Assembly: GCA_013152275.1 (NCBI GenBank)
Contig: JAADGS010000092.1
Coordinates: forward strand, 12,793 to 76,792
DNA from: Actinomycetota bacterium
GTDB taxonomy: Bacteria; Actinomycetota; Acidimicrobiia; Spongiisociales; UBA4744
Direction: 5' to 3'
Length of the DNA stretch: 64,000 nt
Shown here: one piece after another, positions 17,686 to 56,290 of the stretch
How positions within the stretch are numbered: position 1 is the first letter of the stretch
How the letters are laid out: each line of letters starts with the position of its first letter
Position numbers and translations under genes: made by a program
The notes under the pieces: model-generated
Seen by the model: only the letters and a program-made list of their open reading frames with translations
What the model was told of the DNA's origin: nothing
Database searches by the model: none

Positions 17686-17695
17686 GGGACCGAGT

Positions 17696-29363: not shown

Positions 29364-29382
29364 CGCCCTTACTCCTTTGGCT

Positions 29383-32319: not shown

Positions 32320-33233
32320 ACCTTCACGATCTCGGATCGGCCGAAGAACCCGACCGGTCGCACCAGAAGGAAGATGATCAGGAGACCGAATACGATGAGG
32401 TTCTGGAACGTCGAGGAGATGTACCCGGCGGTGAACGACTCCGCCATCCCGATCAGGAGACCCCCCAACATCGCTCCGGGGATCGACCCGATTCCACCGA
32501 TCACCGCGGCGGTGAATCCCTTGAGGCCGGCCACGAAGCCCATGAAGTGGAACACCCGGTTGTACACCAGTCCCATCATGACGCCCGCGGCACCCGCAAG
32601 GGCCGAACCGATGAGGAACGTCGCCACGACGACCCGATCGACGTCGACCCCCATCATGGCGGCGGCCTCCATGTCGAACGACGTCGCACGCATCGCCCGT
32701 CCAAGTCGCGTTCTGTTGACGAGAAGCTGCAGTGCCACCATCAGCACGACGGCCGAGACGATCACAATGATGCGAACGAGCGACACGTGCACGGGTCCGA
32801 TCTGGATCCCGGTCCTCACATCGATCATCGACGGAGTGTTGTAGGAGCGGAACTGCGCCCCGAAGAGCAGCAGGGCGACGCTTTCGAGGAAGAACGACAC
32901 GCCGATGGCGCTGATCAGTGGAGCGATGCGCGGAGCCCGGCGCAGCGGTCGATAGGCGAACCGCTCGATGGCCACGCCGAGAACTCCTGCAAAGACCATC
33001 GCCACCACGAACATGAAGATGACCAGCAACACGACCGGAATGGTGGGAGCCTTCGGGCCACCGAACGTGATCAGCACGCCGTAGCCGGCAAAGGCCCCCA
33101 TCATGTAGATGTCACCGTGTGCGAAGTTCAACAACTTCAGGATGCCGTAGACCATGGAGTACCCCAGGGCGATCAGCGCATACACACTGCCCAACGTCAA
33201 GCCGTTGACGAAGAGCACCAAGAAGAACTCCAT
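32316..33233 (-). CDS. livH: HAAT ABC transporter permease, LivH-type (operon 2)
   Basis: N-terminus LTLGSVYALIALGYSMVYGILKLLNFAHGDIYMMGAF. Confidence 0.9.
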   Translation of the reverse strand: MEFFLVLFVNGLTLGSVYALIALGYSMVYGILKLLNFAHGDIYMMGAFAGYGVLITFGGPKAPTIPVVLLVIFMFVVAMVFAGVLGVAIERFAYRPLRRAPRIAPLISAIGVSFFLESVALLLFGAQFRSYNTPSMIDVRTGIQIGPVHVSLVRIIVIVSAVVLMVALQLLVNRTRLGRAMRATSFDMEAAAMMGVDVDRVVVATFLIGSALAGAAGVMMGLVYNRVFHFMGFVAGLKGFTAAVIGGIGSIPGAMLGGLLIGMAESFTAGYISSTFQNLIVFGLLIIFLLVRPVGFFGRSEIVKV

Positions 33234-33247
33234 GGTCTTGGCGTCGT

Positions 33248-34462
33248 TCAGCCGGCAACCAGGGTGTACGCCCCACCCTTGATCTGGAAGATGAAGAACT
33301 TCGCTCCCTCGAGATCACCGTTGCTCGTGAACTTGATGGGCTGTCCGAGAATCGACGTAGACAGGTCGGTCGCGCCGATCGCGGCAACCACCGCTCCTCG
33401 ACTCAACGCGGTCCCGGAATCGCACACGCTCTTCATCGCGGTCATGACGACATTGGCGGCAGCGAAGGTGGGGGGACCGAACGTCCCGAACTCGCCGTAC
33501 TGCTTCCCATAGTCGTCGACCAGTGCTGCATCGGCCGAGATGTTCTTGATATCTGGAGCGAACGCCGAGACGTATGCCCCTTCGATCGTGAAGTCCTGCG
33601 GAGAGAACAACCCGTCCGATCCGAAGATGATCGCCTTCTTCCCTTGGGCTTGCATCTGCTGGCCGAAGAGTTCCGCATTCGCCGCAATCTGCCAGGGAAG
33701 GAACACAACATCCGTGTCGGCCGAGATCTTCGCCACGAGAGACGAGTAGTCGGTCTGGTCCCGACTCACCGAGTCGCGGGCGACGGTCACGTTCGCGGCA
33801 TCGAGGGCCGCTGCAACCGCATCCGCGAGGCCGGTGGAGTACGAAGTCTGATCGTCGATGATGAAGACCTTCTTCGCTCCGAGCTGCGACATCATGAAGT
33901 TGGCATCCGTCGGCCCCTGAACGTCGTCACGCGGAACCACCCTGAAGAATGTGGGATAGGTGCCGTCGGTCAGGTCCGTCCTCGTCGCCGACATCGATAC
34001 GAAGGCGAGATCGGCCTTTGTGAACAGGGGTCCGATCGCCTGCACGCTCTGGCTGCCGGCCGGTCCGACCACTCCCATGACATCCGCCGACGAGACGAAC
34101 TGCTGGGCCACCGTCGAGGCCTGGGCCGGATCCAACTGTGTGTCACCCTCGACGATCTCGAACTCCGTGCCGTTGGCGGTATTGAACCGGTCCACTGCGA
34201 ACTTCGCCCAGTTCAGCTGCTCGACCCCGATCGAAGCCGCAGGCCCGGTGATCGGCGCCATCACACCTATCTTGGCGACACATGCCGTGGCCATCGTCGT
34301 TGTCGTCCCTGCGGTCGTCACGGTGGATGCGGGGGCCGCCGTCGTCGTGGGGGCCGCCGTCGTCGTGGTCGTCGCCGTCGTCGTGGTCGTCGTGCCGCCT
34401 GTGCTACAGGCCGCTGCAACGAGCGCGAGCACAGCGATGAATCCGAGTATCCGTTTGTTCAT
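33248..34462 (-). CDS. HAAT-family ABC substrate-binding lipoprotein (operon 2) with Thr-rich linker
   Basis: Start MNKRILGFIAVLALVAAACS (lipobox), then a linker TGGTTTTTTATTTTTAAPTTTAAPASTVTTAGTTTT, then a Peripla_BP_6-like domain. Confidence 0.85.
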   Translation of the reverse strand: MNKRILGFIAVLALVAAACSTGGTTTTTTATTTTTAAPTTTAAPASTVTTAGTTTTMATACVAKIGVMAPITGPAASIGVEQLNWAKFAVDRFNTANGTEFEIVEGDTQLDPAQASTVAQQFVSSADVMGVVGPAGSQSVQAIGPLFTKADLAFVSMSATRTDLTDGTYPTFFRVVPRDDVQGPTDANFMMSQLGAKKVFIIDDQTSYSTGLADAVAAALDAANVTVARDSVSRDQTDYSSLVAKISADTDVVFLPWQIAANAELFGQQMQAQGKKAIIFGSDGLFSPQDFTIEGAYVSAFAPDIKNISADAALVDDYGKQYGEFGTFGPPTFAAANVVMTAMKSVCDSGTALSRGAVVAAIGATDLSTSILGQPIKFTSNGDLEGAKFFIFQIKGGAYTLVAG

Positions 34463-34698
34463 GCCCAACCTCTCCTTCCGTACTCCTGACGCACCATTCG
34501 ATGCGCCGCATCCGTGGATCGCCGATTCGATGGATGGAGCACATCCGTGGTGATCCGCGCCGGCAACCAGGTACCGAATTACGCGGACCAAGTTTGAGCA
34601 AGTATCATAGTATCATATCGTTCTTACGACCGAGGGCAGAACGACCGAGGACAGAAGGGCAGGGCAGCATCGTGTCGGTACCGTTTCGAGTAGGAGTG

Positions 34699-35748
34699 AT
34701 GCAGCTCACGATGGAGCCACTCGAGGAGATCCTCGATCATGCCCGAGCCGCCGACGCCGCCGGCATCGACACCCTCTGGCTCGCCGAGGCCTATCCCTGG
34801 TGGCGCAAGCACGGCATGGAAGCCCGGTCCTCCACCGCTCTCTCCCCCGTCATCGCCCGCGAGACCTCGAAGATCGCCATCGGATGGGGCATCATCTCCC
34901 CCTATACGCGCCACCCACTCCAGATCGCGATGGAGGCGCGCGTCGTCCAGGAGGCGGCGGGGCCCGGCCGGTTCCTCCTCGGCCTGGGAGCATCGAAGAT
35001 CTTCATGAAGGAGGTGGCCTCCGGCGGTCGCACCGCTGCACGGCCACTCGCGGCCATCCGAGAAAGCATCGAGATCATCCGGGCCACGCTGTCCGGCAGC
35101 GCCCTCGAGTTCGACGGAACGGCGTTTTCGGCCCACATTCCCGCCCTGGCACCCGAAGCGGACGCGCCCGTGTGGCCGGTACCGATGTACATCGCCGCCA
35201 CCGGACCGAAGATGCTCGACATGGCCGGTGAGATCGCCGACGGGGTGCTGACCGCCAGTATCACCACTCCCGAATTCGTCCGATACGCCAAGGAGAAGGC
35301 TCGCATCGGTGCGCTCCGGGCCGGTCGCGACATCGACGACATCGACATCGGGTGCACCATCGTGGCAAGCATCGACGAGGATCGGGATCGAGGTCGTGAC
35401 GGTGCGCGCGAGATCGCGGGGATGTATCTTGCCAACAAGGTACAGAACATTCGCGGGTCCGCCGATGTCCTCCTCGAGAAGGCCGGGCTGACCTTCGACG
35501 AGATTCGCCCGGTCGCGGCCGCGATGGAACGCGGGGGGCGTCTGGCTGCGAAAGAAGAGGTCACCGACGAGATTCTCGACAAGGTCCATCCCATTGCCGG
35601 CACACCGCAAGACTGTGTCGCCGCCATCGAGGAGTACCGGGCGGCAGGTTGCACCCACATCATGCTGGAACTCTGGGGTGCCGACCGTGTGCGCCAACTC
35701 GAGCTGTTCGGATCAGACGTGCTACCCAAGGTAAGGGCAGTCGAATGA
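34699..35748 (+). CDS. Luciferase-like monooxygenase (LLM) family flavin/F420-dependent oxidoreductase
   Basis: TIM-barrel LLM motifs (LWLAEAY..., and the C-terminal IAGTPQDCVAAIEEYRAAGCTHIML). ATG at 34699; a possible GTG at 34672. Its stop overlaps the next start (ATGA). Confidence 0.8.
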   Translation: MQLTMEPLEEILDHARAADAAGIDTLWLAEAYPWWRKHGMEARSSTALSPVIARETSKIAIGWGIISPYTRHPLQIAMEARVVQEAAGPGRFLLGLGASKIFMKEVASGGRTAARPLAAIRESIEIIRATLSGSALEFDGTAFSAHIPALAPEADAPVWPVPMYIAATGPKMLDMAGEIADGVLTASITTPEFVRYAKEKARIGALRAGRDIDDIDIGCTIVASIDEDRDRGRDGAREIAGMYLANKVQNIRGSADVLLEKAGLTFDEIRPVAAAMERGGRLAAKEEVTDEILDKVHPIAGTPQDCVAAIEEYRAAGCTHIMLELWGADRVRQLELFGSDVLPKVRAVE

Positions 35749-36995
35749 TCCCGGCCGACGCGATCCGCCTCGTCGGTGAGGCGGTGGACCGAGACCGACT
35801 CGTCGAAACGGCCATGGAACTCGTTGCCATTCCCAGCCCGACCGGCCGGGAAGAGGAGGCAGCCGCCTACCTCTGCACCGTCTTCTCCGATCTCGGGCTC
35901 ACCACGATCCAACAGCGAATCGAGCCCGGGCGCGCGAACGCGGTCGGCCGGCTCGCCGGGGCGGGCGTCGGGCGATCGCTCATGTTCAACGGACACCTCG
36001 ACACGTCCTATTCGGGGGACGAACCGTGGTTGAAAGGCCCAGGTTTCAAGCCGGATCCGATCATCCGAGACGACGCCATCCTCGGGCTCGGGATCATGAA
36101 CATGAAAGGTTCGGTCGCATGCTACGTCGAAGCCGTCCGTGCGATCCTCGACGCCGGCATCCGACTCGAGGGCGATGTCATCGTCGCCGGCGTCGCCGGA
36201 GAGATCGAAAAGGCGGAATGGAGCGATGCCTTCAAGGGTGCCGAATACCGCGGGTACGGAGTCGGGACGCGCCACCTGGTGACCCACGGCGTCCTCGCCG
36301 ATGCCTGCGTGCTCGGCGAGCCGACCGAGGAGAAGGTCGTCCTCGGGCATTTCGGAACGATGTGGGTTCGCATCTCGACGCAAGGACCCTTCTTCCACTC
36401 CGCCTACAGCCAAGGCCGAATCCGCGAGAACTCGATCATCCGGATGCAGAGCGTCCTGGATGACATCACCGCGTGGATCCCCTCCTGGGAGAAACGATCC
36501 ACCTTCCACGGTGTCCCGGGTGTCGTCAACATCGGAGCGATCCGAGGAGGGTTCCCGTGGCGCGTCAGTCGAACTCCACACCAGACGGATCTGTTCCTCG
36601 ATGTCCGTGTCCCACCGACCATGCCGATGAAGGCTGCGGAGGCGGCGATCCGCGAGCTCGTACACGACCTCGATGAACGCCACCCGGAGTCGGGCATCGG
36701 GATGGAGGTCTACGTGACCGCCTGTGGAGCCGAGATCGATGCGGACCACCCCATCGTGGCGGCCATCGACCAGGCGCATCGAACGGCCTTCGGGAACGCT
36801 CCCGAGTACGGCTACGTGCGCTGGGCGTCCGACGCCTCCACGCTGCAGCGATACGACGTGCCGGCCGTGAACTACGGTCCGATCTCGTCGGCCCTTCCAG
36901 GGCCCGAAGGCGAGAGCGTTCCGATCGAGTCTCTCGTCAACATCGCGAAATCGTATGCAATGACAGCCGTCTCCTTCTGTGGGGTGAAAGCATGA
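35745..36995 (+). CDS. M20-family metallopeptidase / deacylase (ArgE/DapE/amidohydrolase-like)
   Basis: M20 metal-binding motifs (MFNGHLDT; GxxD region; GVAGEIEKAE). ATGA overlaps at both ends. Confidence 0.8.
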   Translation: MIPADAIRLVGEAVDRDRLVETAMELVAIPSPTGREEEAAAYLCTVFSDLGLTTIQQRIEPGRANAVGRLAGAGVGRSLMFNGHLDTSYSGDEPWLKGPGFKPDPIIRDDAILGLGIMNMKGSVACYVEAVRAILDAGIRLEGDVIVAGVAGEIEKAEWSDAFKGAEYRGYGVGTRHLVTHGVLADACVLGEPTEEKVVLGHFGTMWVRISTQGPFFHSAYSQGRIRENSIIRMQSVLDDITAWIPSWEKRSTFHGVPGVVNIGAIRGGFPWRVSRTPHQTDLFLDVRVPPTMPMKAAEAAIRELVHDLDERHPESGIGMEVYVTACGAEIDADHPIVAAIDQAHRTAFGNAPEYGYVRWASDASTLQRYDVPAVNYGPISSALPGPEGESVPIESLVNIAKSYAMTAVSFCGVKA

Positions 36996-37891
36996 AACTG
37001 ATCACGTTCGACGACCCGACCGGTACACGACACCCCGGTCTCATTCGCGACGATCGTGCAGTCGCCATCGATGCGCCCGACATGCGAAGCGTGTTCGAGA
37101 ACGGCAACGCCCAGGGAGATGCGGCGAACAGCCGAGGCCCGTCCTGGCCGCTCGCCGATGTCACACTCCGGGCGCCGATCATCCCGAAGAAGTTCTTCCA
37201 CACCGCCGGGAACTTTCGGGAGCACGAGGACGAGTCGAAGCGAGTCGGCTGGTCGCACGAGATCGCCCCATGGATCGTGTTCTTTCAGAATGTCGATGCC
37301 ATCATCGGGCCGGACGAACCGATCATCTACCCCTCCCACCTCACCTCGGAGCTCGACTACGAGTTGGAGCTCGCGATCGTCATCAAGAAGGCAGGCAAGC
37401 ACTTCGGCCCCGAGGAGGCCGAGGACTACATCGGCGGCTACCTGATCTTCAACGATGTCACGGCTCGTGACATCCAGCGAGTCGAGATGAAATCGGGTGT
37501 CTTCAGCTTCTGCAAGGCGATCGACACGTTCTGCCCGATCGGTCCGTGGATCGTGACGCCGGACGAGCTCGGAGACCCGCGCCAACTGGACATGCTGCTT
37601 CGCGTCAACGGAGAGACACGGCAGAAGTCACACTCCTCCAACATGACGGTCACGATCCCCCAGATCATCGCCCACTACTCCCCGCTCGGATACAGCCCCG
37701 GCGACATCGTCTCGACCGGGACGGTGGCAGGCGTCGCCGCGTTCCGAGCCGATGCAGAGGACTTCTACCTGCAACCGGGTGATCAGGTCGAATGCGAGAT
37801 CGAGAACATCGGGATTCTCGCGAACCCGATCATCTCGTGGGAACAGGCGTACGGAACCCCACCGCCGGCGACCAGGAGGCCAGGACCGTGA
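36992..37891 (+). CDS. Fumarylacetoacetate-hydrolase (FAH) family protein (2-keto-4-pentenoate hydratase / oxaloacetate decarboxylase-type fold)
   Basis: FAH core YELELAIVIKKAGKH...GGYLIFNDVTARDIQ...IDTFCPIGPWIVT. Stop overlaps the next start (GTGA). Confidence 0.85.
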   Translation: MKLITFDDPTGTRHPGLIRDDRAVAIDAPDMRSVFENGNAQGDAANSRGPSWPLADVTLRAPIIPKKFFHTAGNFREHEDESKRVGWSHEIAPWIVFFQNVDAIIGPDEPIIYPSHLTSELDYELELAIVIKKAGKHFGPEEAEDYIGGYLIFNDVTARDIQRVEMKSGVFSFCKAIDTFCPIGPWIVTPDELGDPRQLDMLLRVNGETRQKSHSSNMTVTIPQIIAHYSPLGYSPGDIVSTGTVAGVAAFRADAEDFYLQPGDQVECEIENIGILANPIISWEQAYGTPPPATRRPGP

Positions 37892-39057
37892 CCTATCCGA
37901 TCGACACCACGAAACTCGACCGGGTTCGGGCGTTGATGGCCGGCGACGGTCTGGATGCGCTCGTCGTTCGAGCTCCCGACAACGTCTGCTACCTGACCAA
38001 TTACTGGCCGATGAAGGGCTATGCCATGGCGGTCTTCCCTCGCGAGGGCGACCCGATCCTCATGGTCCTCGTACCCCAGGAGGAGGAAGCCCACGAGATG
38101 GCATGGACCTCCGACATCCACCTCTTCAACGGGTACGATCCCACAGATCCGCGACCACCGGCCGCCCGCTCACTCGACCGAACCCTGGAAGTCCTCCGTG
38201 AACGGGGCCTCACGGGGCGAATCGGGATCGAACGGTCCCAACTCTCCCAGGGCGCGGATCGGATGGCTGGAGAACCGACCGTGTTCACCGAGGCATACTT
38301 CCGTGCCTTCGACGGCGTCGCCGAGGAGGTCGTCGATGCCGTCCCACTCCTCACTCGCGCCCGGCTGATCAAGACCCCCCAGGAGATCGAGCGGATGGGC
38401 ATCGCCAATGAGCTTGCCGCCCTCGCCCTGGAACATTGCCGGGAGCGCATCCGCGTCGGAATGAGCACCGCCGAACTCGGCGCCCTCTGGGAAGGTCACG
38501 TCCACGAGGTGGGCGTCGGGTATGACGACAAGGTGCTCATGGCCCGCGGCTTCTCGCTCGTCTGGTCCGGAGACGGGATCCGCACCTTCACGCCGACCAA
38601 GGGGGAGCCTGTCGTCTCCGACGAGCCCACGCTCTTCGAGATCTGGGTCTGTGCCGACGGATACTGGAACGACCTCACGAAGAATCTGCTCGTGGGTACC
38701 CTCACTCCCCGCTATGACCGACTCCTCGACGACCTCCTGGCCGTCTTCCGGCGCGCGATCGAGTACGCGAGACCGGGCGTCCCCCTGGCCGGACTCGACC
38801 GGATCATTCGGGAAGGCATCGTCGAGGCAGGGTACGATTCGCCCTCTCACCCGGTCTCGCACGGTGTCGGTACCCGAGCACACGAGGCACCATGGCCCCA
38901 CCAGGCGGGTGAAGGCATGATCGAGGAGGGAATGGTGCTCGCCATCGAACCCGGGACATACTTCCCAGGAGGCGGCGGGCTCCGCCTCGAAGACAACTTC
39001 CTCATCACCGCCGACGGTGCCAGAAAACTCTGCCGGTACGAGGACGACTTCCGATGA
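37888..39057 (+). CDS. M24-family metallopeptidase (creatinase/prolidase/ectoine-hydrolase-like)
   Basis: Creatinase_N-like N-domain and a pita-bread catalytic domain with metal ligands (HGVGTRAHE; EPGTYF). GTG start at 37888. Confidence 0.8.
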   Translation: MTYPIDTTKLDRVRALMAGDGLDALVVRAPDNVCYLTNYWPMKGYAMAVFPREGDPILMVLVPQEEEAHEMAWTSDIHLFNGYDPTDPRPPAARSLDRTLEVLRERGLTGRIGIERSQLSQGADRMAGEPTVFTEAYFRAFDGVAEEVVDAVPLLTRARLIKTPQEIERMGIANELAALALEHCRERIRVGMSTAELGALWEGHVHEVGVGYDDKVLMARGFSLVWSGDGIRTFTPTKGEPVVSDEPTLFEIWVCADGYWNDLTKNLLVGTLTPRYDRLLDDLLAVFRRAIEYARPGVPLAGLDRIIREGIVEAGYDSPSHPVSHGVGTRAHEAPWPHQAGEGMIEEGMVLAIEPGTYFPGGGGLRLEDNFLITADGARKLCRYEDDFR

Positions 39058-40238
39058 TCGACCGATCCCGAGTCTGGACCGGCACACTCAACGAGAAAGC
39101 CATCGATCGTCCTCTCGGTCATGTCGGTATCTACGACACGAGCCTGCGCGACGGCGAGCAGGCCGTCGGGTGCGTCCTCGGCGCCGAACTGAAACTCGAG
39201 ATCGCCCGTGCACTCGACACACTGGGCGTCGACCGGATCGAGGCCGGCTTCCCGAGAGTGACGCCCGAGGATGCCCGCGCCTACGAGCTCATCATGGCCG
39301 ATGGCCTCGACGCCGAGATCTGGGGATTCTCCCGTGCGGTCCCCGCCGACGTGGAGCAGCTCACCGAACTCGGCGTCGGTTCTGCGGTCATCGAGGCGCC
39401 GGTCAGCGACGGCAAGCTCGCCGCCTACGGCCTCGACCGGGCGAAGGTGACCGAACGGGTCGTTCGGGCGGTCGAATATGCCACCGGGCACGGCGTCACG
39501 GTATGTTTCTTCGGAGTCGACGGCTCCCGCGCCGATCCGGTCTTCATGGAACGTATCTATCGGGCGGCGGTGGACGCGGGTGCGGCCGAGGTCGCCATGG
39601 TCGACACCCTCGGCGTCGCATCCCCGGAAGCGGTCACACTGCTCGTCGAACGGTGCCGCGCGTGGGTGGGCCCCGACATCCCGATCCACTGGCACGGCCA
39701 CAACGACTTCGCCCTCGCCGTCGCGGGCTCTCTCGCGGCCGTCCGGGCCGGCGCCTCCTGGGTGCAAGGGTCGATCAACGGAATGGGGGAACGAGCGGGC
39801 AACACCGACCTCGGAGAGTTCGCGCTCGCCCTCGAAGCACTCTACGGCGGTTCCACACGACTGCGATTCGAGCGGATGACCGCCGTCGCCGGTCTCATCC
39901 AGGAACTCTCCGGCTACGACCTCGCACCGTGGAAGGCGGTCACCGGAAAGAACCTCTTCGTGCGGGAGTCGGGAGCCGTCGCCATGCAGTTTCACGAGCC
40001 GGCCGCCGTGGAACCGTACTCCTGCGAACTCGTCGGAGCCGAACGCGGGATCGTCCTCGGCAAGAAGAGTGGAATCGTGAGCATCCGCATCAAAGCCGTC
40101 GAGCTCGGCATCGACCTCCCCGACGAACTCGAAGCCGCAGTGCTCGCGGACGTCAAGGCCCTCGGATCGGCCAAACGAGACCTCGTGACCGACGCCGAGT
40201 TCCGACATATCGTCGCCCACCGCCAAGAGCAGGGGTGA
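39054..40238 (+). CDS. DRE-TIM metallolyase (HMGL-like / 2-isopropylmalate-homocitrate-citramalate synthase family; pyruvate carboxyltransferase domain)
   Basis: IYDTSLRDGEQA catalytic motif and HxH metal motif (IHWHGHNDFALAVA). 394 aa. ATGA overlap with the previous gene. Confidence 0.8.
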   Translation: MIDRSRVWTGTLNEKAIDRPLGHVGIYDTSLRDGEQAVGCVLGAELKLEIARALDTLGVDRIEAGFPRVTPEDARAYELIMADGLDAEIWGFSRAVPADVEQLTELGVGSAVIEAPVSDGKLAAYGLDRAKVTERVVRAVEYATGHGVTVCFFGVDGSRADPVFMERIYRAAVDAGAAEVAMVDTLGVASPEAVTLLVERCRAWVGPDIPIHWHGHNDFALAVAGSLAAVRAGASWVQGSINGMGERAGNTDLGEFALALEALYGGSTRLRFERMTAVAGLIQELSGYDLAPWKAVTGKNLFVRESGAVAMQFHEPAAVEPYSCELVGAERGIVLGKKSGIVSIRIKAVELGIDLPDELEAAVLADVKALGSAKRDLVTDAEFRHIVAHRQEQG

Positions 40239-40242
40239 GCCG

Positions 40243-41193
40243 ATGACCTTGGCGAGGATCTGTGTCGTCGGGGCAGGGACGATCGGCTCGCTCTGTGCCG
40301 GCCATCTGGCTCGCGTCGCCGATGTCTCGATCCTCGTGCGGCGCCCGGAGCAGGCCCGAGCACTCAACGGCGCGGGGCTCCGTATCTCCGGCAAGTCGGA
40401 CTTCACGGTACGCGTGCACGCCACGACCGATCCCGCCACCCTTCCCGAGTTCGACCTTGCCATCGTCGCCACGAAGGCTCCACACGTCGCAACCGCCGTG
40501 TCTTCTCTCACCGGACACTCTCCCGATGCCACCGTCATGTCGATACAGAACGGTCTCGGCGTGGAAGAGGTCATCCGTCGCCACGGCCCGTGGCGGCTCA
40601 TCTCGGCGGTGACCTTCATGAGCGGTACTCGACGTGACGATCGCCACGTCGAGTACGAACTGGACACCGCCACGTGGATGGGGCCCTACGCCGGCACGTC
40701 CACACCGCTCCCCGACGTCGAGGACGTCGGGCGTCTGTTCCAGGAAGCCGGGCTCCGTGTCGAAGTGCTCGCCGACCTGCGCCCCGCCCAGTGGTCCAAG
40801 CTGATCTTCAATTCCGCAGTCAACGGTGTGGCGGCCGTCACCGACCTCCCGCATGTGGCCCTGTTCGCACGGCGCGATCGTGAGAGCGACCTCGGACATC
40901 TCGTCCACGACCTCATGGAGGAAGGCCTACAGGTGGCAGCGGCGCAAGGCCTGACCCTCTGGGAAGACCCGTGGAAGATGAATGTCGAAGCCGTCAGCCG
41001 CGGGAGCACACTCGCCGAGGACTACGCACACGTCCCGTCGATGCTTGCCGACGTCCGGGCCGGGCGCCGCACCGAGGCAGACTTCATCCAGGGCTCACTT
41101 GTGCGGGAGGCGGCCCTGGCCGGCGTGGCGGTGCCGTTGACCACCGCTCTGTACCGGCTCGTGAAGGCACGCGACCGCTCGTTCGACGACTGA
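40243..41193 (+). CDS. 2-dehydropantoate 2-reductase family (ApbA/PanE, ketopantoate reductase fold) oxidoreductase, paralog 1
   Basis: N-terminal ICVVGAGTIGSL Rossmann motif and the ApbA_C domain. Confidence 0.8.
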   Translation: MTLARICVVGAGTIGSLCAGHLARVADVSILVRRPEQARALNGAGLRISGKSDFTVRVHATTDPATLPEFDLAIVATKAPHVATAVSSLTGHSPDATVMSIQNGLGVEEVIRRHGPWRLISAVTFMSGTRRDDRHVEYELDTATWMGPYAGTSTPLPDVEDVGRLFQEAGLRVEVLADLRPAQWSKLIFNSAVNGVAAVTDLPHVALFARRDRESDLGHLVHDLMEEGLQVAAAQGLTLWEDPWKMNVEAVSRGSTLAEDYAHVPSMLADVRAGRRTEADFIQGSLVREAALAGVAVPLTTALYRLVKARDRSFDD

Positions 41194-41205
41194 GGAAGGA
41201 TCGAT

Positions 41206-42129
41206 GTGAAGATCGGGATCATTGGATGTGGCGCAGTCGGAAGCCTGTTCGCCGCACATCTTGCCGCACTCGACGACGTCGAAGTCTGGATCTTCGACGT
41301 CTGGCGGGAGCACGTGGAAGCGATCGAGCGCGACGGCTTGCGGCTGACCGGAATCGGAGAGCTTCACACGCGACCACGAGCCACGGCCGACGCGAACAGG
41401 CTTCCCGCACTCGACTTCGGCATCGTGGCCACCAAGGGCCTCTACACCCGCGACGCCATCGCCGCATCTGCCCACGCGTTCGCCGATGCCGCCGTCTGCT
41501 CGGTGCAGAACGGCGTCGGCAATGAGGAAGTCATCGCCGAGTACGTGCCGCGCGTGATCCGGGGGACGACGTTCCCGGCGGGACGCGTCACCGCCCCGGG
41601 TCTCGTGCAGTGGGATGCGGCAGGAAAGACCTGGATCGGCCCCTTCGAGCCGAAACCGGCGTCCATGGAGGATGTCACCCGACTGGCCGAAACGCTGACA
41701 CGCTCCGGCATGGAGACCGAGGCACTTGCGGATGCTCGCGGAGCACAGTGGACGAAACTCATCTTCAACGCGGCATCGAACGCCCTGTGCTCCTTGACGC
41801 ACCTCCCCCACGGCCGGGCCGCCCTGCACCCCGACGTTCGCTGGGTGATGGACGCGGTCATCGCCGAGGGCAAGACGGTCGCCGACGCACTCGGCATCAC
41901 GATGGAGAAGGATCCCGCGGATCTGCTCGAGGAGAGCATCGCCGTCGCACTCGATCACAAGCCGAGCATGCTCCAGGACGTCTCCTCACGGCGCCGCACC
42001 GAGATCGATCAGCTCAACGGAGGGATCTGCCGCTTCGGTGACGAGGTCGGGATCGCGACACCGTTCAACCGCACCGCCTGGTATCTCGTCCGAGGTCTCG
42101 AAGCCTCGTGGCAACTGGAGGAGACATGA
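41206..42129 (+). CDS. 2-dehydropantoate 2-reductase family (ApbA/PanE) oxidoreductase, paralog 2
   Basis: IGIIGCGAVGSL Rossmann motif. Same architecture as the previous gene; tandem paralogs. Confidence 0.8.
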   Translation: MKIGIIGCGAVGSLFAAHLAALDDVEVWIFDVWREHVEAIERDGLRLTGIGELHTRPRATADANRLPALDFGIVATKGLYTRDAIAASAHAFADAAVCSVQNGVGNEEVIAEYVPRVIRGTTFPAGRVTAPGLVQWDAAGKTWIGPFEPKPASMEDVTRLAETLTRSGMETEALADARGAQWTKLIFNAASNALCSLTHLPHGRAALHPDVRWVMDAVIAEGKTVADALGITMEKDPADLLEESIAVALDHKPSMLQDVSSRRRTEIDQLNGGICRFGDEVGIATPFNRTAWYLVRGLEASWQLEET

Positions 42130-43277
42130 CGACGCCCACACCCAGCCGTGCCGAGATCGACCGCCGCCACCGCGTGATCCGTGATGCGCTCGCCCGCGAC
42201 GATCTCGACGCCCTCGTCGTCGCCGGCTCCGAGTACACCGGCTTCGAGGGGGCAATCCGATGGGTCTCGGGATTTCGGATGGTGCACCGCTATGCGTATG
42301 CGGTGGTGCCGCGAGACGGAGATCCGATCGCCGTGTTCCCCACCGAGGCCAGATGGGTGGGCAGGCATGCGGAGTGTTGGCTCGACGAACAGGTCTTCGC
42401 GGACATACCCGGTTTGTGGATCCGCCAACTCGCACAGGCACGGGGATGGCGCCGTATCGGCGTGTACGGTGTCAACTTCATCATGCCGGTACGTGACCAC
42501 GTCGCGCTCACGGCGGGAAACGTCGAGATCGTCGACTACGACGTCGAGTTCGATCTCATCCGTGCGGTCAAGAGCGAGGAGGAGCTCACGTTCGTCCGCT
42601 CGAGCTTCGATCTCAACGAGCAAGGATTCTGGGAGGTTCTCGACGCCTACGAACCCGGGAAGACGGAAGCGGAGATCATGGCCCCCGCCGAGGCGTTCTT
42701 CGTCGCTCACGGCACCACCCGCACGACGATGAACATGGTCCTTTCGGGCAGGCACGGCACGGCCGGCCCGGAGTTCAAACACCCCGATCCGTCGCGTCCC
42801 GTTGCGGCCGACGACCTCCTCCTCTACTCGATCGAGATCGCCGGCCCATCCGGATACTGGGCCGAGTTCGCCCGCCCGATCTGCGCCGGCGGCCTCGCCT
42901 CCCCCACGATCGAGATCATGGCCGCATATCAGGACTGTTTCGAGCGGGCCCGCACGACCCTGCGCGCCGGCAACACCGCCCACGACGTCCACACCGCCGT
43001 CTTCGGGGCCTTCGCGGGTCTCGACGTCAAGGCGGGCCACGTGACCGGGCATTCGATCGACATGATCATGGTGGCGCATCCGCGCATCGGAGTCGGTGTC
43101 GAGACCGTGCTCGAGGAGAACATGATCATCTCCATCCACCCCCACATCGTGACGAACGACGAGCGCCATTGCCTCTACGTGCAAGAGACGTTCCGGGTCA
43201 CCGCGTCGGGCGGGAAGCAGCTCTCGGGGGTTCCCATCGTGAGCTTCGACGGATCCGAACGAAGGAAGGCGCCGTGA
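42126..43277 (+). CDS. M24-family metallopeptidase, second copy (creatinase/prolidase fold)
   Basis: Start MTTPTPSRAEIDRRH overlaps the PanE2 stop (ATGA). Pita-bread domain metal ligands (VTGHSID; HPHI). Confidence 0.75.
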   Translation: MTTPTPSRAEIDRRHRVIRDALARDDLDALVVAGSEYTGFEGAIRWVSGFRMVHRYAYAVVPRDGDPIAVFPTEARWVGRHAECWLDEQVFADIPGLWIRQLAQARGWRRIGVYGVNFIMPVRDHVALTAGNVEIVDYDVEFDLIRAVKSEEELTFVRSSFDLNEQGFWEVLDAYEPGKTEAEIMAPAEAFFVAHGTTRTTMNMVLSGRHGTAGPEFKHPDPSRPVAADDLLLYSIEIAGPSGYWAEFARPICAGGLASPTIEIMAAYQDCFERARTTLRAGNTAHDVHTAVFGAFAGLDVKAGHVTGHSIDMIMVAHPRIGVGVETVLEENMIISIHPHIVTNDERHCLYVQETFRVTASGGKQLSGVPIVSFDGSERRKAP

Positions 43278-43305
43278 CACGCGAAACGGCCCGTGGCCGG
43301 CACGC

Positions 43306-44886
43306 TCAGCTCAACGCCTTGCCGACCAGGTACCCGGAGTTTCCTCCCAGCCCCGGCCCCGGATGTGTCGACGCGCCGATGTGGAAGACGTTCTTGATCG
43401 CCGTGCGATGCCCCCGACTACCGGGAAACGGTCGCCAGAGGAGGAACTGATCGATCGTGCACGACCCCGAGTAGGGGTCGCCGCCGACGAGGTTCACATT
43501 GAGCGACTCGAGGTCCGCCGGCGAGAATGTCCGGCGGCCGACGACGATCTCATCCAGGTTCTCGATGTGCTCGGCGAGCCGTGCCTGGATGCGGTCGGCG
43601 TACGCCTCGCGCACCTCCACGTTCCACCGGCCATCGGCCGGAACGTCGATCTCCCCGGCAGCATCCCCGTCGATCTTCGAGGGCAGCTCCTGGAGCTGGA
43701 TCCACAGGACCGCACCGCCCTGCGGCGCCCGCGAAGGATCCAGTACCGTCGGCTGCCCGACGACGACCGTCGCACGGGCCGGGAGTAGCCCGCGTTCGGC
43801 TTCGTTCACCGCTCGGGAGACCCCATCGAGCCCGTCGGTGAGATGCACCAGGGCGACGCTGCCCATCTCCGGGTCCGACCACACGGGCGACGCGCCGAGC
43901 GCGAAGTGGATCTGCATGGCGGCCCTGCCGTACCGGTAGGCGCGAGCCGACCCGGCGACCGCCTCCGGGACGACTTCCGAGGGAAGAAGGCGCCCATAGA
44001 GCTGCGTGGGCGTGACGTTGCATACCACCGCATCTCCGGCCTCGTAGACGTCCCCGTCGACCGTGCGCACACCGCCGGCCTTCCCGCCGACGAGAAGGAC
44101 TTCCGCAACCTCCACGCCGGTCCGCATCACCCCGCCCCGCTCCTCGACCATGGAGCGGAAGACCTCGGTGATCCGTTCACTTCCACCGACCACGACGGGG
44201 AGGCCGCCCATCTCGAGGGCGGCGATGATGATCTTGCCGATGAGACCCGAGAACGCCTGGTCCGGCCCGAGCCCGTTGTGAAGAACCCACGGAGCGATGA
44301 GAGCCCGCACCGTCTCGGACCGGATATCGCGCTCCAGCCACGCCCGGCAGGTCTCGAGCCCCTCACCAAAGAACGCTGCGACCCCCTTCACACTCCGGCG
44401 TCGCGCCTCCTTCATGAGAAGCTTCGCCGTCGAACGCGACCAGATCTCATTCCCGAGGAGACCAAAGGAGATCGCGGCGTCCCGTTCGAGGAACCTGTCC
44501 ATCGCAGCCGCGAAACGGTCCCCGTCGCCGTCGCCGGCATCGTTCATGCGGCGAACGTTCTCGGCCCGGTCCGTTCCAAAGACGAGGCTGCGGCCATCGG
44601 GGAGCAGAACCCCGGTCGGCGTCGTCGTGTTCTCCAAGACGAGCCCCCTGTCATGGAGCTCCTCACCGAGCTCCGCGTAGGCGGGGCCGCCGGTGAACAA
44701 TGGGTACCACGACGAAAGGACGTCGTGGCTGAAGCCGGGAAAGAGCTCCTCGGTCCGGATGCAGCCGCCGAGGCGCTCGTTGCGTTCGAGCACCGCGACC
44801 CGCTTCCCCGCCCGTGCGAGAATCGCCGCGCATACCAGCGAGTTCATCCCGCTGCCCACGATGACGATGTCGTACCGGTCAGCCAT
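43306..44886 (-). CDS. Phytoene-desaturase-family (CrtI-like, COG1233) FAD-dependent oxidoreductase, paralog 1
   Basis: N-terminal DIVIVGSGMNSLVCAAILARAG FAD motif. 526 aa, with a C-terminal GASTHPGPGLGG motif. Confidence 0.8.
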   Translation of the reverse strand: MADRYDIVIVGSGMNSLVCAAILARAGKRVAVLERNERLGGCIRTEELFPGFSHDVLSSWYPLFTGGPAYAELGEELHDRGLVLENTTTPTGVLLPDGRSLVFGTDRAENVRRMNDAGDGDGDRFAAAMDRFLERDAAISFGLLGNEIWSRSTAKLLMKEARRRSVKGVAAFFGEGLETCRAWLERDIRSETVRALIAPWVLHNGLGPDQAFSGLIGKIIIAALEMGGLPVVVGGSERITEVFRSMVEERGGVMRTGVEVAEVLLVGGKAGGVRTVDGDVYEAGDAVVCNVTPTQLYGRLLPSEVVPEAVAGSARAYRYGRAAMQIHFALGASPVWSDPEMGSVALVHLTDGLDGVSRAVNEAERGLLPARATVVVGQPTVLDPSRAPQGGAVLWIQLQELPSKIDGDAAGEIDVPADGRWNVEVREAYADRIQARLAEHIENLDEIVVGRRTFSPADLESLNVNLVGGDPYSGSCTIDQFLLWRPFPGSRGHRTAIKNVFHIGASTHPGPGLGGNSGYLVGKALS

Positions 44887-45170: not shown

Positions 45171-45866
45171 TCATTCGTCCTCGGAGGCCTCGGTCGCACG
45201 CTTCGCCTCGGCCTCCCGAAGCCGCTCGATCGCCGCCTCGAACGTGTGACGCAAGTGCACCTCGAGGGCCTTCGCCGCCGCCTCCGGGCGATGCTGGCGG
45301 CACGCCTCGACGATCTGGCGATGCTCCTCGATCCGATCCTCTATCGTCCCTCGGACCGGCAGGGACAGCCGCCGGTACCGTTCGCTGTTGTCCCACATCA
45401 TGGGGATGAGTCGAAGCAGCCACTTCGATCCGGAAGCCTCGTACAAGAGGTAGTGGAGCTGCTCATGAATGTCGTGGGCGGACAGCGGATCGTTCGGAGC
45501 CAGCGCGGCGTACCGTTCGAGGAGATCCTCCGCCTCGTCGAGTTTGTCATCTTCGATCTTCTCTGCGGCGAACGCGATGGCGACGCCTTCGAGCGCCTGC
45601 CGGATCGTGTACGTCTCCTCGAGATCCTGGGCGGACATCTCGGCCACATGGGTACCGCGATGAGGTGTCCGTTCGACGAGGCCGCTTCGCTCGAGATACC
45701 GCAGCGCCTCTCTGATCGGGACGGAGCTCATCGAAAGGGCCTCCACCTGCTCCTGCAGTCGGATGGGACTCCCTGGGGGAATCTTGCCCGAGATGATCAA
45801 TTCTTTGAGTTCGGCCAACGCCACATCGGCCAGAGTCCGAACCCCTCGATAGTCTGCCACCGCCAT
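45171..45866 (-). CDS. GntR-family (FadR/FCD subfamily) transcriptional regulator
   Basis: N-terminal wHTH (LKELIISGKIPPGSPIRLQEQVEALSMSSVPIREALRYLERSGLV) plus an all-helical FCD domain. Confidence 0.85.
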   Translation of the reverse strand: MAVADYRGVRTLADVALAELKELIISGKIPPGSPIRLQEQVEALSMSSVPIREALRYLERSGLVERTPHRGTHVAEMSAQDLEETYTIRQALEGVAIAFAAEKIEDDKLDEAEDLLERYAALAPNDPLSAHDIHEQLHYLLYEASGSKWLLRLIPMMWDNSERYRRLSLPVRGTIEDRIEEHRQIVEACRQHRPEAAAKALEVHLRHTFEAAIERLREAEAKRATEASEDE

Positions 45867-46140: not shown

Positions 46141-46599
46141 TCACAATGTCGTAAGTGACCGCTCTGCGGCACCGAAGAATTCCGCCAAGATCATCTCGGC
46201 CTTTTTCTGGATGGTACTCGCACCCATCGTGGCGACCGTCCCAAGGACCTTGTACTCCCCCGAGACGTGGATCAACGTCCCGTCCTCCGTCGGATCGAGT
46301 CGCAGCTCCGCCTCCACGCTGATGTGCGTGTTCACGTGTCGATCCTGCCCTTCGGCATGGAAGCGAATCCGGCGCCCTTCCTCGAGTTCGACGACCTTCA
46401 CGGAGAGATCCGCCTTCAGGTTGAACATACCGAACCGGTCCGCAAGGACCGCCTCGTAGGAGGACAGGTGCTCCAGCTCGACGACCCCGCTGATCAGCGA
46501 CACCCATCCGGCAACTTTGTCGACGTCGATCAGTACCGGCCAGCACACCTCCGCGGGCGCTCCGACGCGGATCGAACGTTCGAAGTTTGCACTCGGCAT
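46141..46599 (-). CDS. coxG: CoxG/SRPBCC-family protein (carbon monoxide dehydrogenase subunit G-like)
   Basis: 152 aa with a SRPBCC/polyketide_cyc2 profile, immediately downstream of the large Mo subunit. Confidence 0.75.
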   Translation of the reverse strand: MPSANFERSIRVGAPAEVCWPVLIDVDKVAGWVSLISGVVELEHLSSYEAVLADRFGMFNLKADLSVKVVELEEGRRIRFHAEGQDRHVNTHISVEAELRLDPTEDGTLIHVSGEYKVLGTVATMGASTIQKKAEMILAEFFGAAERSLTTL

Positions 46600-46602
46600 G
46601 AC

Positions 46603-52725: not shown

Positions 52726-56286
<3,561 letters not shown>

Positions 56287-56290
<4 letters not shown>

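Follow-up and report, generated by a model that had tools for sequence, protein, structure and literature searches.

Which compound, and by which route, is processed by a tightly packed run of eight enzyme genes that matches no textbook pathway? The question is raised by a locus on contig JAADGS010000092.1 of an actinobacterium of the class Acidimicrobiia (assembly GCA_013152275.1), of which we analysed a stretch of 64,000 nt (positions 12,793 to 76,792), referred to here as the window (W; related loci in other genomes carry the letter L and a number). Between positions 34672 and 43277 of the window, eight co-directional open reading frames (ORFs) lie on the + strand in the order LLM-M20-FAH-M24a-IPMS-like-KPR1-KPR2-M24b (Table 1), named after luciferase-like oxidoreductases (LLM), the M20 and M24 hydrolase folds, the FAH family, isopropylmalate synthase (IPMS) and ketopantoate reductase (KPR).

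On balance we favour the view that this operon is a non-housekeeping, conserved and modular catabolic cluster for an imported nitrogen-containing carboxylic acid, and that it corresponds to no described pathway. The catabolic reading is based on its four hydrolase-type enzymes, on the absence of ligases and synthetases, and on its linkage to binding-protein importers and a GntR regulator. Literature searches for this enzyme combination, for NaaA, M20 and creatinase, and for Acidimicrobiia together with creatinase returned nothing relevant. An orphan operon as such is not surprising; we take this one to be an uncharacterised cluster with presumably neofunctionalised enzymes, the substrate of which is a guess.

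Conservation and modularity of the cluster

A genome-context search for this enzyme combination, suggested in an earlier note on this DNA and extended over 84 loci, showed that the set is conserved and modular. M24b, the best-conserved marker of the system, has a relative in 526 species-representative genomes; the best 80 of these relatives are all from metagenome-assembled genomes (MAGs) of the Acidimicrobiia, Gaiellales, Solirubrobacterales, Thermoleophilia and a few other groups, and very many close relatives in metagenomes are named only 'Xaa-Pro peptidase'. Locus counts were taken from tblastn searches of the window proteins against the 84 non-redundant loci, 46 of them long and most of them MAG contigs; ORF clustering of the loci missed some genes and gave a few antisense artefacts (clusters 26, 38 and 39), and the statistics given here are those of the tblastn counts.

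KPR2 and M24b are adjacent in 82 of the 84 loci, and KPR1-KPR2-M24b forms a universal core (the core triad). Module A, that is LLM-M20-FAH with or without M24a, is present in 28 of the 46 long loci, and the CoxL-like subunit of a molybdenum (Mo) hydroxylase is found in 20 of the 28 loci with module A versus none of the 18 without it (Fisher p = 5.6e-7, kinship being ignored). The IPMS-like gene is optional (20 of 46 long loci): it is missing from some otherwise complete operons, or stands beside the core alone. Identical order of the eight genes was seen in metagenomic contigs whose M24b is 76% identical, in a JGI contig that has an additional MFS gene between them and, interspersed with other genes, in L088. 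Other lineages have a second arrangement, IPMS-LLM-M20-FAH divergent from M24a-KPR1-KPR2-M24b; in some lineages KPR1 is detached from the core and heads the Mo-hydroxylase (Cox) operon, and in some the ABC genes, a PALP enzyme and a class-V pyridoxal-phosphate (PLP) enzyme are appended co-directionally. Because membership is kept while order reshuffles, functional coupling is indicated rather than inherited order alone. The cluster is larger than the operon and modular, consisting of the core, an add-on module that travels with the Mo hydroxylase and, as further members, CrtI-like flavoproteins, class-V PLP enzymes and a GntR regulator. The earlier note had held that its reading would fall if the genes were housekeeping orthologues in an order not conserved among relatives; we find the equivalog cut-offs missed (see below) and the arrangement conserved across classes of the Actinomycetota.

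Triad-only loci, which are of the Gaiellales type, carry other LLMs, a flavin reductase, RidA and a sugar-isomerase-fold protein, and neither the Mo hydroxylase nor module A. An ADI-superfamily protein is found in seven triad-only loci and a threonine-dehydratase/EutB-like PALP enzyme in seven; the latter follows M24b and scores 243 bits on threonine ammonia-lyase models and 215 bits on the EutB model. Behind M24b in L044 (12161-13321), L066 (11107-12165) and five other loci of the Gaiellales type come an F420-class LLM (TIGR04024-like, 197 bits) and a protein of the ADI/amidinotransferase superfamily without an NCBIfam match. This gene pair after M24b in seven triad-only loci is a hint that, in the ADI-carrying lineages, the substrate of the core is a guanidino or amidino compound. 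An OCD/mu-crystallin gene flanks L001.

A cultured carrier of the cluster is Egibacter rhizosphaerae (complete genome CP036402.1; L092, 2764116-2786587), with the order flavin reductase, GAF/LuxR, SDR, StyA-like oxygenase ... class-V PLP ... CoxM-S-L-G, CrtI-like, LLM, GntR, LLM-M20-FAH-M24a-KPR1-KPR2... The StyA/IifC-like oxygenase (410 aa), SDR (261 aa) and flavin reductase (174 aa) have the sizes of IifC, IifB and IifD, respectively. Orthologues of the StyA-like and SDR genes are present in L004, L006, L022 and L040, in which no orthologue of the flavin reductase was found. Also adjoining the Egibacter cluster are an acyl-CoA-dehydrogenase-fold protein and an FMN reductase, which together recall indole oxygenases of the IacA type.

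Organization of the operon and its control region

Read from the sequence, five of the seven junctions are 4-nt overlaps, namely LLM/M20 (ATGA at 35745), M20/FAH (ATGA at 36992), FAH/M24a (GTGA at 37888), M24a/IPMS-like (ATGA at 39054) and KPR2/M24b (ATGA at 42126), and the remaining two are very short spacers, of 4 nt ahead of KPR1 (40243) and 12 nt ahead of KPR2 (41206). The tight packing of an eight-gene operon, and the ATGA and GTGA positions that had been given for it, are confirmed. A purine-rich Shine-Dalgarno-like stretch lies 5' of the operon gene starts, and a promoter/terminator scan returned no sigma-70-like promoter or intrinsic terminator inside 34300-44000, which is consistent with a single transcription unit. 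Stoichiometric co-expression, previously deduced from the overlaps, goes further than they allow. Comparable overlaps are found elsewhere in the window (a GTGA between two ABC permease genes, an ATGA between CoxS and CoxL, and a TGATG between a permease and an ATPase gene), and operons of this genome, whose G+C content is about 65% across the whole window, commonly have overlaps of 4 nt and 1 nt. Since they are common, the overlaps indicate an operon, probably with translational coupling, and no unusual feature. Long antisense ORFs (357-625 aa, - strand) overlie the operon genes at 34624-36779, 38847-40673 and 42009-43280; no domain supports them, and such ORFs are commonplace artefacts of high G+C content.

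The first gene, which the earlier note had placed from 34699, is present, and its start is most likely the GTG at 34672 rather than the ATG at 34699, since the N-termini of orthologues, e.g. MKLPLRIGVMQLT, can be aligned with the nine residues gained, VSVPFRVGV. Between this start and the divergent ABC operon lies an intergenic control region (Table 1) with the sole AT-rich patch. It contains a conserved motif, TTTGAGCAAGTATCATA, at 34594-34610, which is found once in the window and is extended there to a tandem GTATCATAGTATCATA at 34602-34617, the GTATCATA unit being duplicated. In the form TTTG(A/C)GCAAGTATCATA the motif lies ~65-70 nt 5' of the LLM start in the window and its three closest loci (L004, ~2475-2491; L022 and L023, ~2488-2504). 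These three loci share a second conserved block, TTGATAAAGTAGCAAAT, that is degenerate in the window. The motif is a candidate promoter or GntR operator, as far as its conservation and position can tell. No Rfam family was matched in the window or, at a relaxed threshold, in the operon leader; Rfam scans of these and of 14 related loci gave no riboswitch, so that RNA offered no hint as to the ligand.

Enzyme families and remodelled active sites

Family identity was tested by Pfam, by the curated cut-offs of NCBIfam and by matches among PDB structures. All eight domain calls of the earlier note agree with Pfam, which returned Bac_luciferase for LLM, M20 and M20_dimer for M20, FAA_hydrolase for FAH, Creatinase_N and M24 for both M24a and M24b, HMGL-like and HCS_D2 for the IPMS-like protein, and ApbA and ApbA_C for both KPRs. 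None of the eight proteins reached an NCBIfam equivalog cut-off, the only model passed being the broad apbA_panE subfamily (by both KPRs); they are thus not LeuA, PanE or ArgE and are unlikely to be PepQ, and the statement that no textbook pathway is matched holds.

LLM (Bac_luciferase, 179 bits) finds F420-class LLMs in all of its top 12 NCBIfam matches, each of them under the cut-off, and its best PDB matches are Mer (126 bits) and Fgd (95 bits). It is probably not Mer itself (165 bits versus a Mer cut-off of 349), and on family grounds it is probably F420-dependent. As regards this cofactor, no F420 biosynthesis genes are present in the window.

The M20 protein had been called a metallo-deacylase, a designation that we would modify. 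The ArgE/DapE subfamily model TIGR01910 gives 151 bits against a cut-off of 218, and the closest PDB relative is the 5-nitroanthranilate aminohydrolase NaaA (5k8m, 163 bits over the full length), every ArgE/DapE structure scoring 62 bits or less. Residues H84, D86, N119, E153-I-E155 and E192 are invariant in the family. Relative to the M20 ligand motifs as we take them to be placed (H, bridging D, E, E/D, H), the bridging Asp is replaced by the invariant Asn (N119), the EE pair reads E-I-E, and the C-terminal His ligand is missing. With the bridging Asp an Asn, the C-terminal His missing and NaaA as nearest solved relative, the protein is, by its residues, not a canonical deacylase.

FAH (FAA_hydrolase, 224 bits) has 2,4-didehydro-3-deoxy-L-rhamnonate hydrolase as its best NCBIfam match (144 bits versus a cut-off of 500), and matches HpcE/HpaG-type enzymes, diketo-deoxyrhamnonate hydrolase and maleylpyruvate hydrolase in the PDB at 105-128 bits; the metal/Lys motifs ELE, NDVTARD and CKAIDTF are recognizable in its translation. 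A look-up of the exact FAH sequence gave no match. Aligned to the prolidases 5cdl and 1pv9, M24a has all of the metal ligands (E251, D262, H, E, E), the first Asp being changed to Glu. Prolidases are its closest solved relatives (~100 bits), and it is unlikely to be a PepQ orthologue (PepQ_Arch, NF040821, 119 bits versus a cut-off of 630).

The IPMS-like protein scores 314 bits on NF002085 (cut-off 517), its best NCBIfam match, 292 on TIGR02090 (485) and 269 on nifV (463); among structures it matches homocitrate synthase (HCS; 6ktq, 170 bits), IPMS (154 bits) and, at 40-47 bits, DmpG aldolases. Its R32, D33, H214 and H216 correspond to E. coli LeuA R13, D14, H202 and H204, and these residues and the GMGERAGN (GxGERxGN) motif are conserved in 10 orthologues. 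In contrast with this retained site, Val residues (V155 and V309) stand in place of LeuA E141 and H300 (of SGIH), both in the window protein and in all of the 10 orthologues. E141 and H300 we take to be the dyad that deprotonates acetyl-CoA, by correspondence with MtIPMS E218/H379, LiCMS E146/H302 and SpHCS E155/H309; the position of MtIPMS His379 is backed by the literature, the rest of this assignment is presumed, and a literature search on citramalate synthase catalytic residues yielded nothing usable. Although the metal/2-oxoacid site is retained, a Claisen synthase is unlikely given the Val/Val dyad, and the protein may plausibly act as a lyase or in another non-condensing role. The earlier description as an HMGL/IPMS-like aldol-type lyase is therefore right as to lineage (IPMS/homocitrate synthase, without the Claisen dyad) and plausible, if unproven, as to the lyase role.

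KPR1 and KPR2 score 220 and 216 bits on TIGR00745 (apbA_panE subfamily, cut-off 141), and KPR2 finds an archaeal KPR, that of T. kodakarensis, as its best PDB match (144 bits). Aligned with what we take to be the E. coli PanE sequence, the numbering of which is self-consistent, KPR1 retains N98, K176, N180, N184, S244, D248, R253 and E256, and both proteins retain N98, K176, N180, S244, E256 and the SMLxD motif. Judged by these residues both KPRs are catalytically intact. N194 and N241 of PanE, presumably substrate-contacting, are His in both, and R31, which binds the NADPH 2'-phosphate, is retained in KPR1 and is Phe in KPR2. On account of this last difference the nicotinamide cofactor may not be the same for the two, as would befit an oxidation/reduction couple. 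Neither is PanE: every 2-dehydropantoate reductase equivalog scores below cut-off, and there is no panB, panC or panD in the window or the related loci.

M24b is the remodelled member of the M24 pair. The M24 domain scores 71 bits in Pfam, and by PDB sequence match prolidases are closest, at only ~45 bits. Against P. furiosus prolidase (1pv9) the ligand positions read D209 to S235, D220 to E247, H284 to H309, E313 to H338 and E327 to Q353, so that four of the five M24 metal ligands are changed; the substitutions are invariant in a family of 52-96% identity, which also has further invariant His and Arg residues in both domains. Having lost four of five ligands, M24b is on sequence grounds not a dinuclear metallopeptidase. 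Of the two M24 hydrolases claimed earlier, both folds stand and the metal set of M24a is intact, whereas M24b is without four of the five ligands. An AlphaFold2 (AF2) model of M24b (predicted local-distance difference test, pLDDT, 85) has as top Foldseek matches creatinases (template-modelling (TM) score 0.75) and EutD/DoeA (TM 0.80), at 17-20% identity. Its only low-confidence segment (pLDDT <50) is loop 305-324, which holds the invariant H305 and H309 (HVTGHSIDMIMVAHPRIG); in the model this loop may be a mobile active-site lid, or may be ordered by a ligand, metal or partner. A search of a plasmid collection with M24b returned only relatives of 24-26% identity, one of them near Ehu-type transporter genes and too distant for transfer of function.

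Genes surrounding the operon

The features of the window that bear on the operon are collected in Table 1.

Table 1. Position, strand and assignment of operon genes and neighbouring features in the window.
Feature	Position	Strand	Assignment
LLM	34672..35748	+	Luciferase-like TIM-barrel oxidoreductase, probably of the F420-dependent hydride-transferase type (Mer-like)
M20	35745..36995	+	M20-fold hydrolase, degenerate dinuclear site, nearest 5-nitroanthranilate aminohydrolase (NaaA)
FAH	36992..37891	+	FAH-family enzyme of C-C hydrolase, decarboxylase or isomerase type
M24a	37888..39057	+	Creatinase_N + pita-bread M24 hydrolase; prolidase-like
IPMS-like	39054..40238	+	DRE-TIM protein of the IPMS/homocitrate/citramalate-synthase lineage, without regulatory domain
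KPR1	40243..41193	+	Ketopantoate-reductase-family 2-oxo/2-hydroxy-acid dehydrogenase; ApbA + ApbA_C
KPR2	41206..42129	+	Second, distinct KPR-family dehydrogenase; ApbA + ApbA_C
M24b	42126..43277	+	Creatinase/DoeA-fold protein, remodelled His-rich site
Control region	34464..34671 (208 nt)	.	Divergent intergenic region between SBP1/ABC operon (-) and eight-gene operon (+)
First ABC operon	28218..34462	-	Divergent LIV/HAAT importer operon, class-V PLP enzyme at its end (Pfam)
SBP1	33248-34462	-	Lipoprotein of first ABC operon
Permease	32316-33233	-	First ABC operon
Permease	30880-32319	-	First ABC operon
ATPase	30089-30880	-	First ABC operon
ATPase	29383-30102	-	First ABC operon
Class-V PLP enzyme	28218-29474	-	First ABC operon
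Second ABC operon	21973..28040	-	LIV-type operon with its own class-V PLP enzyme (Pfam)
SBP2	26736-28040	-	Second ABC operon
ATPase	25948-26739	-	Second ABC operon
ATPase	25239-26063	-	Second ABC operon
Permease	24361-25242	-	Second ABC operon
Permease	~23348-24344	-	Second ABC operon
Class-V PLP enzyme	21973-23334	-	Second ABC operon
CrtI/CrtO-like	43306..44886	-	FAD oxidoreductase (Amino_oxidase fold; Pfam), convergent with the operon
GntR/FCD	45171..45866	-	GntR/FCD-family regulator, candidate regulator of the system (Pfam GntR + FCD)
Mo hydroxylase operon	46141..50412	-	CoxM-CoxS-CoxL-CoxG-type molybdenum hydroxylase operon (Pfam)
Flavoprotein	49561-50412	-	Mo hydroxylase operon
2Fe-2S subunit	49068-49589	-	Mo hydroxylase operon
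Mo subunit	46603-49071	-	Mo hydroxylase operon
CoxG	46141-46599	-	Mo hydroxylase operon
Second CrtI/CrtO-like	50629..52239	-	FAD oxidoreductase, paralogue of 43306-44886, same cluster

The proposed connection of the operon with HAAT transporters is strengthened by the related loci, to which LIV/HAAT ABC importers are recurrently linked; in L019-L021 the genes of the first ABC operon are co-directional with the enzyme operon. SBP1 matches LivJ/LivK at 89 bits and keeps LivJ S79, A101, T102 and Y150, with E226 changed to Asp. SBP2 is without most of the LivJ amino-acid-binding residues; its orthologues are found in 30 loci, and its type is tied to triad-only loci. The class-V PLP enzyme scores below cut-off on SufS and kynureninase models, and aligns over its full length with the kynureninase model. 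The combination of a LIV-type ABC operon ending in a class-V (SufS/kynureninase-like) PLP enzyme recurs in L010, L014, L015, L018-L021 and L070.

On the operon's other flank, the CrtI-like flavoprotein has CrtO/CrtI matches in NCBIfam below their cut-offs, and its orthologues occur in 38 of the 84 loci, with and without module A. Orthologues of the GntR/FCD protein are found in 18 loci, all with module-A genes and/or CoxL and none of them triad-only, and also in Egibacter. The CoxL-like large subunit (822 aa) has quinoline 2-oxidoreductase (Qor; 1t3q, 375 bits) as its best PDB match. It is not a CO dehydrogenase, having neither the AYRCSFR motif of form I nor the AYRGAGR motif of form II and scoring 436-515 bits on models of that enzyme with cut-offs of 950-991. 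Relatives of this subunit are named '2-furoyl-CoA dehydrogenase large subunit' at JGI and 'aldehyde oxidase' at NCBI (Egibacter), both names being similarity-based.

Farther out, 52726-57297 encodes a single-polypeptide pyruvate:ferredoxin/flavodoxin oxidoreductase (1125 aa) and, after it, a protein with the dihydroorotate-dehydrogenase fold; the former hints at life under low oxygen or as a facultative anaerobe. At 58502-62488, a GNAT-ADP-forming acyl-CoA synthetase fusion (Pat-like protein acetyltransferase, 919 aa, - strand) adjoins a mannosylglycerate synthase (402 aa, + strand; compatible-solute synthesis). A menaquinone-type group at 14784-18487 comprises a MenD-like thiamine-pyrophosphate enzyme (14784-16433, +), an isochorismate-synthase-like, chorismate-binding protein (16480-17793, -) and an alpha/beta hydrolase (17696-18487, -); it is followed by a CBS-BON protein (18484-19119) and a GAF-histidine kinase/LuxR response regulator pair (19544-21511).

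Proposed function and alternative explanations

Under the catabolic reading a nitrogen-containing carboxylic acid would be imported, and would then be oxidised or hydroxylated by the Mo hydroxylase and the flavoproteins, and/or reduced through hydride transfer by LLM. M24a, M20 and M24b would cut C-N bonds hydrolytically and the FAH enzyme would cleave a beta-dicarbonyl intermediate, after which the KPR pair would interconvert 2-oxo and 2-hydroxy acids and the DRE-TIM enzyme would trim as a lyase or decarboxylase, not as a synthase.

As to the substrate of the full cluster, we tentatively, and with little confidence, guess at an acid of the tryptophan-indole-kynurenine/quinoline family, aminoaryl or N-heteroaromatic in nature. 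Several independent, if weak, signals point in this direction: the NaaA-like M20 and the Qor-like CoxL tied to module A, the precedent for ring reduction among hydride transferases of the F420-dependent, luciferase-like kind (LLHTs) and the FAH relatives from aromatic lower pathways, and the IifB-, IifC- and IifD-like genes beside the Egibacter cluster together with the full-length kynureninase alignment of the class-V PLP enzyme. Taken one step further, the cluster could encode an undescribed route for an indole-, kynurenine-, anthranilate- or quinoline-type acid that is independent of a ring-cleaving dioxygenase, a proposal that we regard as doubtful and put forward as speculation. In such a route the Qor-like Mo hydroxylase and the flavoproteins would activate the ring, the Mer-like F420H2 hydride transferase would dearomatise it, and the NaaA-like M20 would remove the amine hydrolytically; the M24 proteins, as lactam- or amidine-type hydrolases, and the FAH protein, as a beta-diketone hydrolase, would open the ring, and the KPR pair with the former synthase, now a DRE-TIM lyase, would finish the 2-oxoacid products.

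A number of observations weigh against an aromatic substrate. The functional links are drawn from distant family similarity, at 17-35% identity to characterised enzymes. The window has no StyA-like or SDR gene, a ring-cleaving dioxygenase and an IifA (DLH) homologue were not seen, and no DLH gene was found anywhere among the loci. Triad-only loci carry ADI, EutB-like PALP, other LLMs and a sugar-isomerase-fold protein instead, a content that fits a small aliphatic amidino/hydroxy-amino compound at least as well. SBP1 resembles an amino-acid binder, the folds nearest to M24b are creatinase and ectoine hydrolase, and the use of F420 by LLM is inferred from family membership only. Finally, the co-occurrence statistics ignore kinship, and most loci are MAG contigs.

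Several of these points lead to the main competitor, the breakdown of a small aliphatic amino-acid derivative of cyclic amidine, guanidino or ureido type that resembles ectoine/hydroxyectoine, creatine, citrulline or an opine. Here M24 would, in the manner of DoeA or creatinase, open or cleave the amidine or guanidine, M20 would remove an acyl or carbamoyl group as do EutE and AbgB, and the other enzymes would process the carbon skeleton. We hold this to be unlikely, though it has to be reckoned with. Creatinase is a metal-free M24 member, and M24b, with four of five metal ligands lost, has creatinases and EutD/DoeA nearest to its model; both M24 proteins give weak full-length matches to DoeA models, SBP1 is LivJ-like, and among the related loci there are the PALP enzyme after M24b in seven loci (215 bits on the EutB model), the OCD/mu-crystallin gene flanking L001 and the ADI-superfamily (guanidino-modifying) gene after M24b and LLM in seven loci. 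Putative Gram-positive ectoine clusters, moreover, have two eutD genes and an M20, abgB (PMC13188858). The ectoine/creatine reading, which the earlier note had entertained, nevertheless fails the family tests: DoeA/EutD models give 37-49 bits versus cut-offs of 575-613, identity to creatinase/DoeA is 17-20%, and threonine ammonia-lyase models give the PALP enzyme a better score (243 bits) than EutB does. No DoeC/DoeD-type aldehyde dehydrogenase, class-III transaminase, Ehu/Ueh/Tea transporter, urease or urea carboxylase was seen nearby, and this explanation leaves the Mo hydroxylase, FAH, the NaaA-like M20, LLM, the StyA-like oxygenase and the two KPRs without a role.

The intact KPR pair invites another idea, namely that the substrate of the core triad is a pseudo-dipeptide or an N-(2-hydroxyacyl) or N-acyl amino acid (pantothenate-like, N-lactoyl, N-acyl imino acids), hydrolysed with M24b or M24a as the amidase, the KPRs oxidising the freed D-2-hydroxy acid, such as pantoate, and the other genes processing the products. 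The subfamily scores of both KPRs (220 and 216 versus 141 bits), their PanE catalytic residues and SMLxD motif, the prolidase-like M24a with its intact metal site and the amino-acid type of the importers would all fit, yet N194 and N241 of PanE are His in both proteins, no equivalog is reached, beta-alanine or malonate-semialdehyde enzymes and pan genes are not nearby, the Mo hydroxylase, LLM, NaaA-like M20 and flavoproteins have no role, and so large and widespread a cluster is unlikely to exist for the sake of a trace vitamin; we judge the idea improbable. Still lower stands a biosynthetic operon, making, e.g., a metabolite that contains a hydroxy acid: acetyl-CoA and a 2-oxoacid would be condensed by the IPMS-like enzyme, and keto intermediates would be reduced by the KPRs. 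Biosynthesis is the classical role of both the IPMS/HCS lineage and the KPR family, but the Claisen dyad is missing in all orthologues, the IPMS-like gene is absent from many otherwise complete clusters, four hydrolase-type enzymes are found without any ligase, synthetase or tailoring transferase, and binding-protein importers and a GntR/FCD regulator are linked, making such an operon very improbable. Every protein has housekeeping members in its family, so a chance juxtaposition of LeuA, two PanE, two PepQ, ArgE/DapE, an FAH-family enzyme and an LLM might also be imagined; with equivalog cut-offs missed, key catalytic or ligand residues altered and the set recurring as a unit, in reshuffled order, in dozens of genomes of different classes, this is hardly credible.

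Other candidate pathways were rejected because gene content does not fit: purine/allantoin degradation, oxidative pyrimidine degradation, the beta-hydroxyaspartate cycle (glyoxylate assimilation), non-phosphorylative sugar-acid pathways and S-(2-succino)cysteine breakdown, for which LLM plus M20 is an analogy only. Pantothenate degradation is a poor fit in gene content and is kept solely within the low-probability N-acyl proposal above. CO oxidation was dismissed for want of a CO dehydrogenase motif, and carotenoid metabolism, for the CrtI-like genes, by its wrong context.

Significance of the cluster

Acidimicrobiia, Gaiellales and Solirubrobacterales are abundant and rarely cultured heterotrophs of sediments and soils whose substrate range is poorly known, and a gene set that has no assigned pathway and is carried by at least 526 species-level genomes is a gap in maps of carbon and nitrogen cycling. 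Its members are systematically misannotated, under names such as 'isopropylmalate synthase', 'ketopantoate reductase', 'Xaa-Pro peptidase', 'acetylornithine deacetylase' and '2-furoyl-CoA dehydrogenase'. The three remodelled sites (IPMS-like, M20 and M24b) are leads for new enzyme chemistry, and Egibacter rhizosphaerae, together with the candidate regulator and operator and the two binding proteins, makes the question testable. Were a dioxygenase-free aromatic route to prove true, it would entail new reaction specificities in the M20, M24, IPMS-like and KPR families, and would give a function to a gene set carried by more than 500 mostly uncultured actinobacterial species of marine sediments and soils.

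Comparison with known systems

The cluster resembles other hydrolase-rich catabolic operons in its presumed workings and draws on known families. By those families' defining sequence tests, it is not LeuA, PanE, ArgE/DapE, DoeA or CO dehydrogenase and probably not PepQ or Mer, and what it shares with known systems is distributed over several of them. In ectoine catabolism, too, a small molecule is attacked first by an M24 enzyme of Creatinase_N plus pita-bread build and next by a second amidohydrolase; M24b is predicted to superpose on EutD (TM 0.80), and an EutB-like PALP and an OCD-family gene occur in some related loci. The presence of two M24 paralogues and an M20 in one cluster recalls the putative Gram-positive type, with two eutD copies and an M20 (abgB) replacing eutE (PMC13188858). 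The DoeA models TIGR02993 and NF038259 (cut-offs 575 and 613), however, give M24a 49 and 40 bits and M24b 39 and 37 bits, none of the partner genes EutE/DoeB, Ssd/DoeC, Atf/DoeD, Ehu/Ueh/Tea and EnuR is found in the window or the 84 loci, and ectoine breakdown uses no LLM, FAH, KPR pair, DRE-TIM enzyme, Mo hydroxylase or CrtI-like flavoproteins, all of which the present cluster has. Creatinase resembles M24b in its Creatinase_N plus pita-bread fold, in the loss of dinuclear ligands (four of five) and as top Foldseek match (TM 0.75); identity is 17-20%, and there is no sarcosine oxidase or creatininase nearby.

IPMS, homocitrate and citramalate synthases share with the IPMS-like protein the fold, the R-D...H-x-H site, the GxGERxGN motif and the HCS-type accessory subdomain, and differ from it in the dyad (Val/Val here), the regulatory domain (absent here) and scores that stay below cut-off. 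PanE is like both KPRs in that these pass TIGR00745; it differs in that two paralogues stand together here and are coupled to an M24 protein. The KPR family reduces diverse 2-oxoacids, including aryl-glyoxylates, and the D-mandelate dehydrogenase structures 3wfi and 3wfj are among the KPR matches.

Among aromatic pathways, NaaA of Bradyrhizobium JS329 (PDB 5k8m), an M20 hydrolytic aryl-amine deaminase, is the closest solved relative of the M20 protein by ~100 bits, a relationship at family level only. FAH-family hydrolases act downstream in 5-nitroanthranilate-type aromatic pathways. Unlike the naa pathway, the cluster has no NaaB-type ring-cleaving dioxygenase, and its M20 stands invariably within an LLM-M20-FAH order, which has not been described for naa. 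The iif indole operon, iifABCD, consists of DLH (IifA), SDR (IifB), StyA-like oxygenase (IifC) and flavin reductase (IifD) genes (PMC4577076, PMC6221969); IifB-, IifC- and IifD-like genes adjoin the Egibacter cluster, whereas the window is without StyA-like and SDR genes and IifA (DLH) was not seen. The StyA model gives 137 bits against a cut-off of 550, on a cluster-44 paralogue from L011 and not on the Egibacter StyA-like group, and nothing known downstream of anthranilate in indole pathways resembles the present operon. The best matches of LLM, all below cut-off, are F420H2-dependent LLHTs (Mer, Fgd, the picrate reductases Fht/Npd and 4-alkyl-proline reductases), a family that transfers hydride to C=N and C=C bonds and to electron-poor aromatic rings and that includes the ring-reducing picrate reductase (PMC8498797). 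With the Mo-hydroxylase routes for N-heterocycles (quinoline 2-oxidoreductase, nicotine/ketone dehydrogenases) the cluster shares a CoxLMS-type hydroxylase, co-occurring with module A, whose best match among solved structures is Qor.

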